Sequence record: KP869111
Origin: Escherichia coli O157 typing phage 13
Length of the DNA: 64,000 bases
Strand: one strand, 5' to 3'
Shown here: piece by piece, positions 49,433-56,095 of the stretch
How the letters are laid out: each line of letters begins with the position of its first letter
Numbering within the stretch: the first letter of the stretch is position 1
Notes under the pieces: model-generated
What the model was told of the DNA's origin: nothing
Database searches by the model: none
Seen by the model: the letters and a program-made list of their open reading frames with translations, nothing else
Translations under genes and position numbers: made by a program

Positions 49433-50392
49433 TTATGATTTTAACGCATTCATTGCGTTAAAAAGTTTAGAATACTGCAACTGGAGATTCGTTACAACAC
49501 TTTGAGCATCACGAAGCTTAGCTTGTGCTTTGTCAAGTTCAACAGACAGTTGGTCCATAGTGGCCTTGATTTGATTGTAATGGTAATCTTCGGCCGGAAG
49601 AAGGTCATTAGAAACATTTAGTTTTACTGCAGACAGTTTGCACACATTTGGCAAACCTTTAAACATTGATTTACCCGAAGTAGAATAAGCACTTAGGACT
49701 TCGGCCTGTTCAATTGGGGTCCCAGTAAGCGATGCTTCAAACAATGCATTTTCCTTTTTAAGATTTTGATAATATTCGGAGTCTTTGTGCCACCATGGCG
49801 CAGGAACCTTTTTACCAATAGATACACGAGCCTGGATAGCGATATGGCCCTTATTCTTGATAAGGTCGATAATATTAAGCTCACGAGAATAAATCGCTTT
49901 AATCTGGTGGATATTATCACCTAAAACTTCCAACGCTTGGTGGAATACACGAGCGACATTATCATTCTTAGGTTTATACGTAAGAGTGAACTCATTCTCA
50001 CTGATAACCATGATTTCCAACTTATCGTAAGTATATTTCAAATGTTTCATGTTAATTGCTTGAGGACGAATACGAGAAGCAATGGCCATCAGATTGTTAA
50101 GGTTATTCCGGAACTGCTTAGCGAAATATTGTCCTTCACCGCCAATACAAAAATTACGAAGTTTCTGTTTGGCCAATAAACGGCTGAACTCACCATTTTT
50201 AATGAACTCTTTAACGGGTGTGTTAGTAACGCATTCAAATTGAGTAAACTTACGAGAAGTAATCCCATAATATGAACAGATTTCCTCAATCTCTTCAGGA
50301 GTCTTTACAGGCATACGGATAGGATTAGGTCCTGGAGTATATGCGTTCGAGGTAAATTCTTTGATAAGTTCTCTACGTGTAATAAAAGCCAT
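49433..50392 (-). CDS. hypothetical protein with C-terminal coiled coil
   Basis: 319 aa; GAGGAA SD; own conserved promoter. Confidence 0.55.
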   Translation of the reverse strand: MAFITRRELIKEFTSNAYTPGPNPIRMPVKTPEEIEEICSYYGITSRKFTQFECVTNTPVKEFIKNGEFSRLLAKQKLRNFCIGGEGQYFAKQFRNNLNNLMAIASRIRPQAINMKHLKYTYDKLEIMVISENEFTLTYKPKNDNVARVFHQALEVLGDNIHQIKAIYSRELNIIDLIKNKGHIAIQARVSIGKKVPAPWWHKDSEYYQNLKKENALFEASLTGTPIEQAEVLSAYSTSGKSMFKGLPNVCKLSAVKLNVSNDLLPAEDYHYNQIKATMDQLSVELDKAQAKLRDAQSVVTNLQLQYSKLFNAMNALKS

Positions 50393-50418: not shown

Positions 50419-50448
50419 ATTATACTCCAACCATCCTTGGTTGTACAT
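50419..50448 (-). promoter_or_regulatory. early-type promoter, conserved copy (TGTACAACCAAGGATGGTTGGAGTATAAT)
   Basis: 26-nt identity with copies at 7389 and 49400. Confidence 0.55.
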
Positions 50449-51443
50449 CATTCCTTAAGAAGTTTTACTACCTGAATAAGATTAGCTCGTTCTGTTTTAT
50501 TTTTACCGTTTAAGCCTGCTAATCGTGAGATTTCATCGTCAGTCTGTTGAATAGTTACATTAAGTTCGTTAATCAAAGCTTCAAAGTATTTGATTTGCTC
50601 AGCATGTTTTGATTCAAATTTCTGAACCGGAATAACGTCTTGGTTCAGTTCATCAATAAGGTCTTTAAGAGCATCTTCTTGGTTGATATCATATTCAACT
50701 TCTTTTATTTCTTCAACGAGCTCGTCTTTATATCTAACGTCTTTTAGTCCTGGAGCTGGTCCTGAAATCTCTTCTTTAAGAGTACAAACATACCCAATAC
50801 GGTATCCAACGCCGTCTCGCTTGATATCAACTTCGTCGATAAATCCACAATGTTTAAGTCCAGAGCCGATTATGTCAAAATATCCTTGACGTCGTCCTTC
50901 AAACGTTACACGAACTACTAAGACGGTTTTGCCACCGACCTTTTGAAGCTCACATTTATAAAAGTTTGTTGAACCTGAATAACATGGATGAGTTTTAAAG
51001 TTCATCTGACGATCTAGGCCCATTTGTAAACGTGCTGTTACGGCCATAAAACGTGTTTGGTTCTCGTTAAGATGAGCAACAATCCATTTCAAAGGCATTT
51101 TACCCTGTTCACGGCCGAACAAATCAGTACGTCCTAGATTACGCAGGATGTTGTTAGAGTTAATCATCGACAGAACGTTAAGTTTATTCAGCGCGCTGAA
51201 GATTCCATCAGCCATTGATTTTCCATAACCTTTACACGCTTTAATAAGTGCTCGCGGCAGATTAGTATAGATTTCAGACGGCATATGAAAATCAAATTTA
51301 CTAGTCAGTAATTGATGAACTTGGATAGCAATTTGCTCATAATTAAGTGCTCTGCGATCGTTATGGTCTTTAAACCATACTTTAATCTGTGAAGCACATA
51401 AACCGTTAATTTCATGTTTTACCGCATCAGATGTAATGCTCAT
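50448..51443 (-). CDS. hypothetical protein with C-terminal coiled coil
   Basis: 331-aa ORF. Confidence 0.55.
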   Translation of the reverse strand: MSITSDAVKHEINGLCASQIKVWFKDHNDRRALNYEQIAIQVHQLLTSKFDFHMPSEIYTNLPRALIKACKGYGKSMADGIFSALNKLNVLSMINSNNILRNLGRTDLFGREQGKMPLKWIVAHLNENQTRFMAVTARLQMGLDRQMNFKTHPCYSGSTNFYKCELQKVGGKTVLVVRVTFEGRRQGYFDIIGSGLKHCGFIDEVDIKRDGVGYRIGYVCTLKEEISGPAPGLKDVRYKDELVEEIKEVEYDINQEDALKDLIDELNQDVIPVQKFESKHAEQIKYFEALINELNVTIQQTDDEISRLAGLNGKNKTERANLIQVVKLLKE

Positions 51444-51505: not shown

Positions 51506-52033
51506 TTATGCGTGAACCGACTTTAAACGTTCTTCAAATTTCCGAAGAGTACTAATACGTTCTGCTTTCTGTTTTGTATAGTTTGCAATACGTTCTGAAG
51601 TGAGAGCGTATCGTTCGTTTACTGTTTCTTTCATGAAGTCAGGGATTTCACGAGAAGCTTTAATTTCATCAAACTTATCGAGTACTGCCTGGTCTTCAGC
51701 AATTAAATTTTCGTACATCTCGATATCTTTCTTGATGAAGTCGATATCTTCCTGGGTTACTTTGGATAAACGAGATGCTTTATCCTTTTTGTACTGCTCG
51801 TTAGTTTCACGAGACCAGAATAATGTACGTTTTTTGTTAGTGTTTTTGTAGACTTCCACAATTCCAACTGAATCGATGATAACAATCCAATTCCAGCGAG
51901 ATTTGAAAATCTGACCTCCGTCCACGGTAATCTCGTTACCATAAGCAATGTCATTAAAGAACTTACTTTGTGCTTCGGATTTAAATTTACCGTCGTTATA
52001 ATTTACCAGGTTGAAAATATCTTTAGCGTTCAT
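51506..52033 (-). CDS. hypothetical protein
   Basis: 175 aa; GTTTAC promoter hairpin at about 52040-52090 upstream. Confidence 0.5.
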   Translation of the reverse strand: MNAKDIFNLVNYNDGKFKSEAQSKFFNDIAYGNEITVDGGQIFKSRWNWIVIIDSVGIVEVYKNTNKKRTLFWSRETNEQYKKDKASRLSKVTQEDIDFIKKDIEMYENLIAEDQAVLDKFDEIKASREIPDFMKETVNERYALTSERIANYTKQKAERISTLRKFEERLKSVHA

Positions 52034-52091
52034 GTTTTACCTCCAGTAGTTGATAGGTCTATAATAACATAACCATAGACCTTGTAAACAA

Positions 52092-52379
52092 CTAAAAGAA
52101 ACTTTTTTCGGTATTTTTTCCACTGAACCAAACAGACTTCGGGATTTTTTGTAATTTTTCAGATTTAAGTTTCTCTTCCTGTTCTTTCTTATATACACCC
52201 TTGTCGTACTGGAGCATCTCTATGACATTCTTTTGCAAACGATCTAAGGTAATTAAGGCTTTAGTTTTTCCTTTCAAGGAAGAGTCCTGGCGAACCTCCT
52301 CGCTATATTGCATTGTAGAACTAACCATACGATGAGCATAGAGTTCGACTGCGGCTTTAATTTTTTGCATAAAATCCAT
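52092..52379 (-). CDS. hypothetical protein
   Basis: 95 aa; AGAGGA SD 8 nt before ATG. Confidence 0.45.
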   Translation of the reverse strand: MDFMQKIKAAVELYAHRMVSSTMQYSEEVRQDSSLKGKTKALITLDRLQKNVIEMLQYDKGVYKKEQEEKLKSEKLQKIPKSVWFSGKNTEKSFF

Positions 52380-52517
52380 AACATATCCTCTTTGATTTGT
52401 ACATCATTATTTTTAAATATTTCTATGCCCTCAGTAGGTTCCTGGTGTCCTTCTTTGAGGTAAGCCATATGATTATTCATCTTTATGGCTTTTGTTACCT
52501 CAGAACTTCCTATAAGC

Positions 52518-53519
52518 TTATTTCAGTAAAGTAACTTCCGAGATTTCTTCCCAACCATCTTTATCAGTTGAAATAAAATCTGCTACATAAAGAGCCGTAC
52601 GTAATGATACATTGCGAAGACGAGATACGTTAGCCTTCATCCAGGACAATGCTTTATACGTTTCTGCATCCGTCAGACCACGTTTCTGCATCATGTCAGT
52701 AGATAATATTACATCTTCAACTCGAACCATAATCTCTTCATTAGAGTGTACTCCAAGGTCGAGATACACTGAACGAGATACTAAAGCTTGAAGGTGTGGA
52801 GCAAGTTTCGAACCCCGTTCTAACTCTTTATCGATATCAACGTTTGTAATGAAAACGATAGTACCTTCAAACTCAAATTCTTTATCAATACCCTTATCCT
52901 CGAGATAAGATGACGCAGTGCTCCAACAAACTTTGCGTTTATCTCCGGTATCTAATGCTGCTTTAAGAAGGTTCAGGATGTCCATATCTGAGAATACGTC
53001 AACGTCATCGATTAAGAGAACGCTGTCTTCATCACGGTTGAGCCAAAGTTGTTCGTAAAGGCCAATACCAGAGATTTTACCATTAATGCTTTTGTATTTG
53101 ATGAAACCATTATCATTAGCATTATTAAGTGCTTTATCCAGAGAATACGTCTTACCAATACCAGCTGCACCTGAAATAATGAGTGAACGAATTTTGCCAT
53201 CGATAATGCCATTCGTCATCATGTTCATTACTTTAAAGCGTTTGTTGATACGGGTTTTCATATCTTCAGTGCTTTCAACAACTGCAACTGGTGATGTCTC
53301 AACTCCTTCCATTACGATGTCTGATTTGAAGACCCATACTCCACGTTCAGAACCATCAATCATAACGAAAATTTTACCATCACCTAAGTGGGAACATTCA
53401 GGATTAAGCTTTGCCGGGAACCAGGTCTTTGTGGCAACATAAGAACCAGAGATTTCGTTATTACGATAGATACCTTTTTTGATTTGAACGTTGAACATTT
53501 TATTCTCCAATTTACTCAT
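52518..53519 (-). CDS. P-loop ATPase (AAA-like) with N-terminal domain of unknown function
   Basis: 333 aa; Walker A ISGAAGIGKT, Walker B LLIDDVD. Confidence 0.5.
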   Translation of the reverse strand: MSKLENKMFNVQIKKGIYRNNEISGSYVATKTWFPAKLNPECSHLGDGKIFVMIDGSERGVWVFKSDIVMEGVETSPVAVVESTEDMKTRINKRFKVMNMMTNGIIDGKIRSLIISGAAGIGKTYSLDKALNNANDNGFIKYKSINGKISGIGLYEQLWLNRDEDSVLLIDDVDVFSDMDILNLLKAALDTGDKRKVCWSTASSYLEDKGIDKEFEFEGTIVFITNVDIDKELERGSKLAPHLQALVSRSVYLDLGVHSNEEIMVRVEDVILSTDMMQKRGLTDAETYKALSWMKANVSRLRNVSLRTALYVADFISTDKDGWEEISEVTLLK

Positions 53520-53595
53520 TTCGTTTCGATAGGTCTATAGTATCATATCCTAAAAGCATGTACACTACTTTTTAAAAATATTTTAACCCCCTAAA

Positions 53596-53612
53596 GGGAC
53601 CCGAAGGTCCCC
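53596..53612 (-). terminator. hairpin GGGGACC-UUCG-GGUCCC after secreted-protein gene
   Basis: GC-rich stem with UUCG loop; only a short U-tract. Confidence 0.4.
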
Positions 53613-53616
53613 ACAT

Positions 53617-53883
53617 TTACTTATCACACTTAGCAACATAATTAGGCATATCACAGAATACAGAGCGAGTAACTACTCGACCCTTTGACCATGCTTCAGT
53701 TGCTTGTCCGGCCGTGCTATTAATATAGCTTGATTTAATGTTCTCAATACCCTGAGAATGTGATGCATTTACCGAACCGTTAGAAGGCCCAGAAGACTGG
53801 TTACCACCAGCTCCTGCGCCCGTGGTAGCACCAACAGAGAATGCCATCATTACTGCGAATAAACCAATTACTAATTTTTTCAT
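53617..53883 (-). CDS. secreted Gly/Ser/Asn-rich small protein
   Basis: 88 aa; N-terminal signal peptide MKKLVIGLFAVMMAFSVGA. Confidence 0.45.
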   Translation of the reverse strand: MKKLVIGLFAVMMAFSVGATTGAGAGGNQSSGPSNGSVNASHSQGIENIKSSYINSTAGQATEAWSKGRVVTRSVFCDMPNYVAKCDK

Positions 53884-53914
53884 ATTTACCTCAAGTTAAT
53901 GGTTATTTATCTAT

Positions 53915-54904
53915 TTATTTATAGTAAGAATTATGATTTTCGAGATAGACTTGCTCAAGGAAGTCATCCCAGAAACTCATATCTACTTTTTGTTGCATAC
54001 CGTTCTTAGCGGCTTGTTCTGACGCATGTTCAACTTGGTCAACGATATCTTCTAGGAATTCTTGCACAGTTTTAAACGTATGTTTACCAAGCTTAACATC
54101 GAGAATAAATGGAGCATCCTGAAGTGGGTAAACCAGGTCGCCGGTTTTGTAAATTTCCAATAATTGAAGTCCACCACGACATGCATGACTCAATGCTTTC
54201 CAGTCAATACCTTCGTTAGCTTCTGCCTTACGAGCACGTTCGCCATAGTTCTCTTCCAGTTTAACCAGGATGGCATTGAACTCTTTATTGGTTAACGTAT
54301 CTTGGAATTTACGGTCTAACAGATTATAGAATGTTTGCTTACCTGTTTTCTCGTTTTCGGTTTCAACCCATGAAGCAAATTCACCTACAGGCAGAACATT
54401 CTTCATATGTGATAAACGAATTACTGCACCATTATCAAAGTATTGTCCCCATTCATTAGAACGTTTAAGGGCTTGACGAAGAACAGCCAGTCGAGAACCC
54501 TTGACACCGTATTTAGAAGCTTGCTTACGGACATACCCTAAATAAGATTTCATGTTAGTGGTATAGAAACGAGACCTGTTATCTTGAATATACTTCCATA
54601 CATCAGGCAAATCAGATTTAACTACTAGACTTTGTGGAGTGTGAAGCATATCTAATGCGACGGTTTCACCATCTGCAGCTAGTTTAAAGAAATATTTGAG
54701 ACTATATAACTCATGGTCCACGTCGTCTTTTGTGTTCTTAGAAGATGTGTTATTCGTGTTCTTGCTCATGTGTTCTTTAACGTTACCGGTCAAGATATCA
54801 CGAGCATGAGGGACATAAATTTCTTTAAAATCGACGTCAGATTCAGGAGTAGACGTTCCATAAAGGTGGCTACCAAAGTAGCCTTTCATAATTGTTTTCA
54901 TCAT
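53915..54904 (-). CDS. polymerase-beta-type nucleotidyltransferase-fold protein, function unknown
   Basis: 329 aa; N-terminal GSHLYGTSTPESDVDF fits the G[SG]x9-13 DxD NTase motif. Confidence 0.5.
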   Translation of the reverse strand: MMKTIMKGYFGSHLYGTSTPESDVDFKEIYVPHARDILTGNVKEHMSKNTNNTSSKNTKDDVDHELYSLKYFFKLAADGETVALDMLHTPQSLVVKSDLPDVWKYIQDNRSRFYTTNMKSYLGYVRKQASKYGVKGSRLAVLRQALKRSNEWGQYFDNGAVIRLSHMKNVLPVGEFASWVETENEKTGKQTFYNLLDRKFQDTLTNKEFNAILVKLEENYGERARKAEANEGIDWKALSHACRGGLQLLEIYKTGDLVYPLQDAPFILDVKLGKHTFKTVQEFLEDIVDQVEHASEQAAKNGMQQKVDMSFWDDFLEQVYLENHNSYYK

Positions 54905-55374
54905 TTAGCCTTATATTCAAGAGTAGGACAGACTTTTTCTTTACGAGCTTTAAGGTATTCGCCTATTAATGATTTCTTACGTTCAATAGGCTCAAGTCCA
55001 TTTTTAATTCGTTCTTGGTTTTGCGCAATGAGCTCAATTTCTTTATAATATTTTCTGTCGTTATATTTGTCTAACAACCAAGACGGACCAATTACCAACC
55101 CGGTAGCAATAAAAGCCATGACTGCTACAATTAAAATGCCTACACCAATTGAGGCTGGAACTAATGTCCATAGACTGCTAAAAACAAAGAATTTAGTTAA
55201 AATTTCCTGGCCAATGATTGTGACTGCTGCTAAAATCGCAAATCCAATAATTGAAACAGCCAATACCGGGATTAACGTTTTCCAAAAATAAGCACACAAC
55301 GTTTTCGGACGATTCCATGTACTATTGAACGCGGCATAAATTTTAAAGTGCCAAGAGTTTTCATTGATAATCAT
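54901..55374 (-). CDS. membrane protein (3-4 TM helices)
   Basis: 157-aa ORF; ATGA-type overlap with upstream gene. Confidence 0.45.
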   Translation of the reverse strand: MIINENSWHFKIYAAFNSTWNRPKTLCAYFWKTLIPVLAVSIIGFAILAAVTIIGQEILTKFFVFSSLWTLVPASIGVGILIVAVMAFIATGLVIGPSWLLDKYNDRKYYKEIELIAQNQERIKNGLEPIERKKSLIGEYLKARKEKVCPTLEYKAK

Positions 55375-55383
55375 AATAATTCC

Positions 55384-55914
55384 TTATTTCAAAGTTGGGA
55401 TAATAGAATCGAGATAAGCTTTAAGAGCAACTGCTTCATCTTTGTCTAATGTAACGATATGTTGACGAAGGTCATCAATTTGACGAATAACTACAACATC
55501 GCCATCTTCATAAGAAGGATTAACGCCTAGGACCGTTGTATAGTCAGGGCGGTCCTGATTTGTAATAAAAGCATTACGGCATTTAGCCCATTGAAGTTTG
55601 GCCTTTTTGGCTATTTCAGATTCCATTAATTCTTTCACCTTAGTGACGAATGTTTTCCAATTATTGATAGAAAGGCATTCATCTTCTGTTTCGATATTAA
55701 CCCCACTATAAAGACCGTGATAAAAACGAACTTGAAGGTCTTCATCGATGTTAATTACAGATGCATGGCCTGGCGGATTGAGTTTCAAAATCTTGTCCAG
55801 TTCCATAGGAAGAATAGTAACAGAATCATCTTCTTGTGTCAGAACGTAAGCATAACCACGTTTTTCGATACATAAATCACCAAACAACTCGGTTGTTTCA
55901 ATTACAATTTTCAT
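55384..55914 (-). CDS. hypothetical protein
   Basis: Track M1 is GTG; ATG at MKIVIE directly after the upstream stop. Confidence 0.5.
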   Translation of the reverse strand: MKIVIETTELFGDLCIEKRGYAYVLTQEDDSVTILPMELDKILKLNPPGHASVINIDEDLQVRFYHGLYSGVNIETEDECLSINNWKTFVTKVKELMESEIAKKAKLQWAKCRNAFITNQDRPDYTTVLGVNPSYEDGDVVVIRQIDDLRQHIVTLDKDEAVALKAYLDSIIPTLK

Positions 55915-55915
55915 A

Positions 55916-56095
55916 TTATTCACCAATTAAAGTTTCAACAAAATTCACCAAAGCATTCTGGCACGCATCAACCTGATTTTCATAAAAGTCTCCGTTATCA
56001 TTTACCGCGTGATAAGCTACATCATTCAAATCTGAATCGGCTTCACGTAGGTCACGGATAAGGTCCATCAATTTATTAGCTTGTTCACGGGTCAT
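55916..56095 (-). CDS. small acidic protein (59 aa)
   Basis: Own translation MTREQANKLMDLIRDL...; not in track. Confidence 0.3.
   Translation of the reverse strand: MTREQANKLMDLIRDLREADSDLNDVAYHAVNDNGDFYENQVDACQNALVNFVETLIGE

Follow-up and report, generated by a model that had tools for sequence, protein, structure and literature searches.

The NrdC.11 orthologue of Escherichia coli O157 typing phage 13, an RlaP-family nucleotidyltransferase with a proposed role in tRNA repair

What does a T4-like phage gain from a nucleotidyltransferase of the DNA polymerase beta (Pol-beta) fold? The question is raised by an open reading frame (ORF) of 329 amino acids (aa) on the minus strand at 53915..54904 of a 64,000-nucleotide stretch of Escherichia coli O157 typing phage 13 (sequence record KP869111), the whole of which is referred to here as the window. 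A first-pass annotation, made from the sequence alone, had placed a 329-aa ORF at this position, which holds, and had described its product as a Pol-beta-fold nucleotidyltransferase of unknown role for which no T4 counterpart was recognised. The counterpart exists. ORF calling, Pfam, PHROG, RefSeq and BLASTP together identify the gene as the orthologue of T4 nrdC.11, encoding a Pol-beta-fold nucleotidyltransferase of the RlaP family (PF10127), and it is virtually certain both that the gene is an nrdC.11 orthologue and that its product is a catalytically intact member of this family. The description 'unknown role' is outdated to the extent that the PF10127/RlaP family has a predicted function in RNA repair and that two Pseudomonas members have been characterised; what still has to be inferred is the role in infection. 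Since the gene already carries the RefSeq label nucleotidyltransferase and already belongs to a named family, the identification as such is known.

T4 NrdC.11 (NP_049709.1, COG3541/PHA02603, NC_000866 55435-56445, labelled 'nucleotidyltransferase') is 78% identical to the window protein along its full length, with 85% positives over 329/336 residues in BLASTP. Gene order agrees as well, T4 and the window phage having in common the series nrdD, 49, pin, nrdC ... nrdC.10, nrdC.11, mobD.1-like, rI, tk. The gene two positions upstream of nrdC.11 is 45% identical to T4 MobD.1 and matches Pfam T4_y05I, and the ATPase encoded at 52518..53519 is 78% identical to T4 NrdC.10. Homologues of the nucleotidyltransferase are found by tblastn in 1573 phage records, among which the Tequatrovirus copies are ~78% identical and named nrdC.11. 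Nolan et al. 2006 had already matched nrdC.11 orthologues to the COG3541 nucleotidyltransferases and nrdC.10 to AAA (PMC1524935). In many GenBank and UniRef records the NrdC.11 and NrdC.10 orthologues are called 'thioredoxin'; neither of the two proteins of the window has a Pfam match to a thioredoxin domain, and the locus names nrdC.10 and nrdC.11 are apparently the source from which this mistaken label has propagated. At 52000-56000 the window matches E. coli O157 typing phages 3 and 6 (Mosigvirus, Straboviridae) with 100% identity and many further relatives with 98-99%, and it holds zero tRNA (transfer RNA) genes and zero Rfam matches.

The exact start of the protein deserves a remark. The frame opens with two ATG codons, within ...AAGGCTAAATGATGAAA..., and RefSeq uses the second, its coding sequence beginning at 54901, one codon later, to give a protein of 328 aa (YP_009592866.1, 'nucleotidyltransferase') in place of the 329-aa ORF. 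Because the BLASTP alignment of T4 NrdC.11 also begins at residue 2 of the 329-aa ORF, the second ATG (54901, 328 aa) is probably the true start. A start at 54901 shares one base with the TGA stop of the upstream membrane-protein gene.

Membership of the RlaP family is carried by a Pfam match to PF10127 (RlaP, RNA repair pathway DNA polymerase beta family) with an expect value (E) of 5.9e-13 and 49.5 bits against a gathering cut-off of 23, the match being limited to residues 7-152, or profile positions 23-148 of 249. The protein also matches phrog_388 'nucleotidyltransferase' (E=4e-126), and searches of NCBIfam and PADLOC gave no match for it or for its three neighbours. An exhaustive homologue search of 1.84 billion cluster representatives (50%-identity clusters) returned 3242 matching clusters at E<=1e-3 and 742 at E<=1e-30, the top 150 being mostly full-length with 34-56% identity; 101/102 aligned homologues also match PF10127. 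Across these 102 sequences G11, S12, S22, D23, D25, Y132, K236, R243 and G273 are invariant, and the residues conserved in at least 90% include N57, D61, D63, D85, K131, R223, D234, W235, H240 and K271. The first five of the invariant residues lie in the active-site motif GSHLYGTSTPESDVDF, residues 11-26, which is exactly the translation of 54827..54874 on the minus strand and contains the GS...DxD signature that the first-pass annotation had pointed out.

A structure prediction, one of the checks named in that annotation, yields the nucleotidyltransferase fold, and the residues of the probable acidic triad are conserved; with the invariant GS and DxD residues, this bears out the original assignment to the Pol-beta fold. 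The AlphaFold2 model, built from the homologue alignment, has a predicted local distance difference test score (pLDDT) of 93.6 and a predicted template modelling score (pTM) of 0.82, and nucleotidyltransferases are its top matches in fold comparison. The N-terminal nucleotidyltransferase core, residues ~1-118 (54551..54904, minus strand), comprises strands 3-10, 24-31, 45-49, 62-68 and 94-96 with the GS helix 12-15, and is the only part that aligns by sequence to canonical RlaPs, those matching PF10127 over its full length. The middle region, residues 132-233 (54206..54511, minus strand), consists of the end of helix 119-155, a three-stranded beta insert at 177-201 and helix 206-228, and is not aligned to canonical RlaP. 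The C-terminal helical domain, residues 234-328 (53921..54205, minus strand), contains helices 235-254, 264-271, 277-300 and 309-328, the helical bundle of the model as a whole spanning 206-328. This domain holds the invariant K236, R243 and G273 and the nearly invariant D234, W235, H240 and K271, and its basic residues could bind RNA or a nucleoside triphosphate (NTP). Sequence searches of the PDB with the single protein and with a 60-sequence profile gave best E values of 0.15-0.26, to unrelated proteins, and the C-terminal 130 residues alone returned only noise from Pfam.

How close the protein stands to canonical RlaPs was assessed with an aligned set of 14 sequences from bacterial loci, which match PF10127 over its full length with E down to 6e-81. 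Profile-profile comparison by hhalign of the NrdC.11-type proteins, as the window protein and its homologues are called here, with the canonical set gives 94% probability over ~120 columns (query columns 5-133, ~residues 1-131). In this alignment G11/S12 correspond to G27/S28 of the canonical proteins, D23 to D39, D25 to D41, D63 to D72, D85 to E94 and P90 to P99. D63 (54716..54718, minus strand), at the start of strand 62-68, is the probable third catalytic carboxylate, conserved in at least 90% of homologues and aligned with the invariant D72, and D85 (54650..54652, minus strand), in the motif ALDMLH, is a further acidic residue near the active site, equally conserved and aligned with the invariant E94. 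As the aligned residues of canonical RlaPs are all invariant or nearly so, D23, D25 and D63 most likely make up the catalytic triad, and D85 is one more conserved acidic residue beside it. The C-terminal half, by contrast with the core, is left unaligned to canonical RlaP by both Pfam and hhalign, and comparison of the full-length model with predicted structures of the canonical phage RlaPs of Eowyn and PaBG gives template modelling (TM) scores of 0.4-0.57. The NrdC.11-type is a long, divergent RlaP paralogue, distinct from canonical RlaP.

A natural deletion variant helps to divide the protein. NrdC.11 of Escherichia phage JSE (Krischvirus; L008 4004-4702) has 232 aa and aligns to window residues 1-131 and 234-321; what it lacks is the middle region 132-233, from the last part of the long helix through the beta insert to the first C-terminal helix, which contains the R223 that is conserved elsewhere. 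Because this shorter orthologue aligns farther into PF10127 (positions 24-198), the middle insert is, as judged from the alignments, an add-on. The JSE gene lies near regB and vs, not near nrdC.10.

The RlaP family was reportedly defined in a paper by Burroughs and Aravind in 2016. Its biochemistry comes from a bioRxiv preprint of December 2025 by Carruthers, Fatma and Huang, in which the RlaPs of Pseudomonas fluorescens and P. aeruginosa added one or two nucleoside monophosphates (NMP), or their deoxy forms (dNMP), to an RNA 3'-OH, with a preference for Mn2+ or Co2+ and with no action on DNA or protein (PMC12776372). Given a mimic of a broken tRNA, these enzymes preferred the 3' end of the 5' half, and they partially rescued aminoacylation of a tRNA missing one anticodon-loop nucleotide (PMC12776372). 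The study proposes RlaP as an antidote to 'smart' ribotoxins such as RloC, and its similarity network has T4 NrdC.11 among the RlaPs, in cluster 5 (PMC12776372). Earlier, Iyer et al. 2021 had predicted that jumbo-phage RlaPs restore RloC-removed nucleotides before ligation (PMC7824862).

Additional evidence comes from gene neighbourhoods. In a set of one genome per GTDB species, 80 bacterial and archaeal loci encode full-length NrdC.11-type homologues with 33-52% identity, and their neighbours were compared by ORF calling, all-against-all BLAST clustering and a Pfam check of recurrent clusters. The homologues come from Desulfobacterales, Nitrospirota, Alphaproteobacteria and some archaea, among others, and several of the loci are on contigs of megabase length. 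A canonical full-length PF10127 RlaP (~255-290 aa) is encoded directly downstream on the same strand in 16/80 loci (L032 6004-7746, L061 6001-7802, L015, L018, L023, L028, L033, L036, L042, L044, L056, L064, L069, L073, L079 and L081); the NrdC.11-type member of these pairs has ~310-330 aa, and the two genes often abut or overlap. Pnkp (PNKP_ligase), Hen1 (Hen1_L), RtcB or Ro60 is found within 6 kb in 13/80 loci, and an adjacent canonical RlaP or an RNA-repair neighbour in 29/80. Two of the loci illustrate the arrangement, one (L032) in the order Ro60 - RtcB - x - NrdC.11-type - RlaP - Hen1 and the other (L061) in the order Hen1 - Pnkp - NrdC.11-type - RlaP. Every other recurrent neighbour family is confined to at most 6/80 loci. 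Among phages, the homologue of Sinorhizobium phage phiM12 lies between an Rnl2-like and an Rnl1-like ligase, and the genome of the window phage encodes RNA ligase 1, polynucleotide kinase and RNA ligase 2.

From the family biochemistry, the RNA-repair neighbourhoods of the subfamily and the repair genes of the genome, we infer what the window protein does, on which RNA it acts and what it contributes during infection. The reading that is favoured, with somewhat better than even confidence, is that NrdC.11 fills gaps during phage tRNA repair, adding one or two nucleotides to an RNA 3'-OH to counter nucleases that remove nucleotides. A host anticodon nuclease or similar ribotoxin would cut a tRNA and remove at least one nucleotide, the model case being RloC and the wobble base, after which the phage polynucleotide kinase-phosphatase would turn the broken end into a 3'-OH. 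NrdC.11 would then add one or two NMPs to this end without a template, with D23, D25 and D63 coordinating the two metal ions of the reaction (probably Mn2+), and phage RNA ligase 1 or 2 would seal the break.

Several observations weigh against this assignment. The enzymes that have been assayed are canonical RlaPs, which are ~21% identical to the window protein over the N-terminal ~130 residues only, and as the C-terminal half with its beta insert differs from theirs, the choice of substrate could differ too. A literature search turned up no experiment that deals with NrdC.11 or with a phage RlaP. Untemplated addition gives the right base only some of the time, a caveat raised by the authors themselves (PMC12776372). 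An RNA-repair neighbour is absent in 51/80 loci, and in T4-like phages the gene does not adjoin the ligase or kinase genes, which in the window phage lie ~55-85 kb from nrdC.11. The co-occurrence of NrdC.11-type and canonical proteins in bacteria suggests that the two are not redundant and that the phage enzyme, acting alone, may accomplish only part of the task. Moreover, the fragment nrdC.11-mobD.3 is among the large fragments lost in viable genome-reduced T4 mutants (PMC9825161), which means that T4 nrdC.11 is dispensable on laboratory hosts.

The tandem arrangement also leads to a more specific proposal. It suggests that the two paralogues do different jobs or form a heterodimer, and the NrdC.11-type would then be a functionally distinct partner paralogue that T4-like phages would have captured alone, as a dedicated counter-measure that, with Pnkp and Rnl1, would defeat RloC-type nucleases. 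In bacteria it would act with canonical RlaP in Pnkp/Hen1 and RtcB/Ro60 operons, for instance as a heterodimer; alternatively, each enzyme would handle a different end or a different nucleotide. T4-like phages encode the NrdC.11-type without a canonical RlaP and have Pnkp, Rnl1 and Rnl2 elsewhere in the genome, and the canonical RlaPs occur in 86 phage records, mostly with large genomes of 250-350 kb (e.g. ~280-kb Pseudomonas phages), none of them T4-like. This proposal is tentative and, taken as a whole, rather doubtful. If true, it would explain how repair of the T4 type can withstand a defence regarded as proof against repair. The RlaPs assayed so far, all canonical, may represent only half of a two-enzyme step.

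The same chemistry could serve another target than the anticodon loop. NrdC.11 might repair or remodel the acceptor end of tRNAs, or tail other RNAs, in reply to another host attack such as trimming of the CCA end or nucleases acting on the acceptor stem. This would fit the homologue of Vibrio phage Yong MS31, which starts 2 nt after a CCA tRNA nucleotidyltransferase gene, and that of Aeromonas phage CC2, preceded at 4 kb on its own strand by genes for a tRNA nucleotidyltransferase and an HD phosphohydrolase; in addition, no CCA-adding enzyme is annotated in the ~120 kb of the window phage's genome that were inspected, namely the window, L001 and L009, and the Pseudomonas RlaPs also label full-length tRNA-sized and rRNA-sized (ribosomal RNA) species and single-stranded RNAs (PMC12776372). 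However, when a broken-tRNA mimic offered both ends in vitro, RlaP chose the 3' end of the 5' half in preference to that of the acceptor (PMC12776372), the bacterial subfamily sits with ligase systems (Pnkp/Hen1, RtcB) for which acceptor-end repair has no need, and a CCA enzyme adjoining the homologue argues for a complementary and not an identical role. A function at the acceptor end, or in tailing other RNAs, is considered unlikely, and gap filling in the anticodon loop remains the preferred reading.

A departure from RNA altogether, in which the enzyme would nucleotidylylate a protein or small molecule, for example by AMPylating a host HEPN-type RNase in the manner of MNT or by modifying an aminoglycoside-type metabolite, is quite improbable. 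The structural neighbours of the model do include kanamycin nucleotidyltransferase/ANT(4'), LinB, AadA and the MNT antitoxin-HEPN toxin complex (7ae9), and the two-domain layout resembles that of kanamycin nucleotidyltransferase, although the match to 7ae9 is weak (Foldseek E 0.22, TM 0.19). Against this, the sequence profile is PF10127 and not that of the ANT or MNT families, canonical RlaPs left E. coli proteins unlabelled (PMC12776372), and the bacterial neighbours are RNA-repair enzymes and not HEPN toxins. Eight neighbouring proteins of the window were scanned, and none of them showed a HEPN domain. Synthesis of a nucleotide or oligonucleotide signal or decoy against nucleotide-signalling defences (a HalB-like oligodeoxyadenylate or a cGAS/OAS-like product) is very improbable, there being no PADLOC match at E<=0.01, no CD-NTase, OAS or SMODS match in Pfam, no CD-NTase among the top PDB fold matches and a similarity to HalB limited to the common core, while characterised RlaPs depend on an RNA 3'-OH as acceptor and add no more than two nucleotides (PMC12776372); on the same PADLOC and fold results, the cGAS/OAS-like or CBASS-related (cyclic oligonucleotide-based antiphage signalling system) link suggested in the first-pass annotation was not upheld.

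The genes on either side, which had been read as parts of an accessory module, are treated here as neighbours only. They are as first described: a membrane protein of 157 aa with long hydrophobic segments (phrog_944; 54901..55374, minus strand), an 88-aa protein with a signal-peptide-like N-terminus (phrog_2243; 53617..53883, minus strand) and the nrdC.10 orthologue, an AAA/P-loop ATPase with the Walker-A motif GAAGIGKT (52518..53519, minus strand). That the membrane protein, the secreted protein, the nucleotidyltransferase and NrdC.10 act together in host interaction is hardly credible. The four genes lie tightly packed on one strand, the stop of the membrane-protein gene overlapping the start of the nucleotidyltransferase gene; NrdC.10 is encoded close downstream of NrdC.11 in T4 (directly) and in Mosigvirus and Acinetobacter phage DP45 (with one or two small ORFs between), and in DP45 a homologue of the membrane protein is also found near the nucleotidyltransferase. 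But the entire nrdC-tk region consists of tightly packed early genes on the same strand, and packing alone means little. The membrane and secreted proteins have no homologue in the T4 region by tblastn, a 114-bp gap replacing the secreted-protein gene and mobD replacing the membrane-protein gene. NrdC.10 is not encoded within 6 kb of the homologue in RB43, JSE, CC2, phiM12, K491, Yong MS31 and PBECO4, and in Aeromonas phage 50AhydR13PP it lies 57 kb from it. At the 80 bacterial loci there is no recurrent AAA-ATPase, membrane or secreted partner, the largest unrelated clusters covering at most 6 loci. A scan for promoters and terminators was not above shuffled controls (19 against 21.5 promoter-like sites), and no operon boundary was therefore drawn. 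Because the neighbours are not conserved across relatives, because dense same-strand early genes extend throughout and because no promoter or terminator signal rose above the shuffled controls, the arrangement is taken as synteny and not as a functional unit, and the four-gene module is not supported.

Some observations on these neighbours stand apart from the question of function. The DP45 homologue of the membrane protein (L090 5178-5633) is 27% identical. In T4, mobD, an HNH homing endonuclease gene, lies directly upstream of nrdC.11 (T4 L002 12430-13209), and the place may originally have belonged to the membrane-protein gene, with mobD displacing it in T4. The NrdC.10 ATPase has only sub-threshold Pfam matches (AAA_22, AAA_16, nSTAND3, AAA_14) and is called 'clamp loader' in some records; its homologues occur in 1311 phage records, including partial matches in the jumbo phages K64-1 and vB_Ec-M-J, a distribution that overlaps that of NrdC.11 only partly. 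Farther upstream, the RefSeq label 'helicase loader' on a 59-aa ORF at 55916-56095 looks implausible for its size and its place among small early ORFs, and a gp59-like helicase loader is annotated elsewhere in the genome of the window phage (L009 2639-3292). Downstream, three conserved proteins are encoded at 49433-50392, 50448-51443 and 51506-52033 (DUF7235/phrog_2351, phrog_2257 and phrog_2274), which by position probably correspond to the T4 nrdC.4-nrdC.8 region; two of the three end in long coiled-coil-like C-terminal segments.

Since the T4 orthologue was flagged as a nucleotidyltransferase in 2006 and now figures in the literature as an RlaP RNA-repair enzyme, the identification adds little as it stands. 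The residual interest lies in the role in vivo in T4-like phages and in a distinct paralogue that is often paired in bacteria and solo in T4-like phages. T4 is the founding model of RNA repair, in which Pnkp and Rnl1 oppose PrrC. A third T4 enzyme that replaces excised nucleotides would complete this arms-race story against RloC-type nucleases.

Among known nucleotidyltransferases, the class II CCA-adding enzymes also carry out untemplated addition to RNA 3' ends and are encoded near the NrdC.11 homologue in two distant phages. They are a different family with a different domain layout: the window protein has no PF01743 (PolyA_pol) match at E<=0.01, CCA-adding enzymes are not among its structural matches, and it is not known to have their head-neck-body-tail architecture. 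Kanamycin nucleotidyltransferase/ANT(4') and the Exiguobacterium nucleotidyltransferase-like protein 3c18 show 8-13% identity and TM ~0.3 and have no sequence family in common with it, and the aminoglycoside substrates of kanamycin nucleotidyltransferase/ANT(4') are irrelevant to phage infection. The MNT antitoxins are proteins of ~100-150 aa accompanied by an adjacent HEPN toxin, whereas the window protein is a two-domain protein of 329 aa. Hailong HalB (9dbh), 15% identical, belongs to a host defence in which this enzyme of 217 aa acts together with the HalA channel; the locus of the window protein has neither a HalA-like neighbour nor a PADLOC match.

The closest known systems are T4 and the canonical RlaPs. 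T4 NrdC.11 and the window protein have their conserved motifs in common, the most variable stretch between them being residues ~150-215, which hold the beta insert. The two loci differ in that the place directly upstream of nrdC.11 is taken by the mobD homing endonuclease gene in T4 and by the membrane-protein gene in the window phage, and in that nrdC.11 and nrdC.10 follow each other without an intervening gene in T4, whereas the 88-aa secreted-protein gene lies between them in the window phage. Relative to canonical RlaP, sequence similarity stops after the first ~130-150 residues, and the NrdC.11-type exceeds it in length by ~60-70 residues, having a KNT..D.D insertion ahead of the third Asp, the beta insert and a divergent helical domain. 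Nevertheless, both kinds of protein are built from two domains, a nucleotidyltransferase core and a helical domain, both have in that core the GS motif, the DxD pair, a third Asp and a further acidic residue, and both have homologues in RtcB and Pnkp/Hen1 RNA-repair operons.

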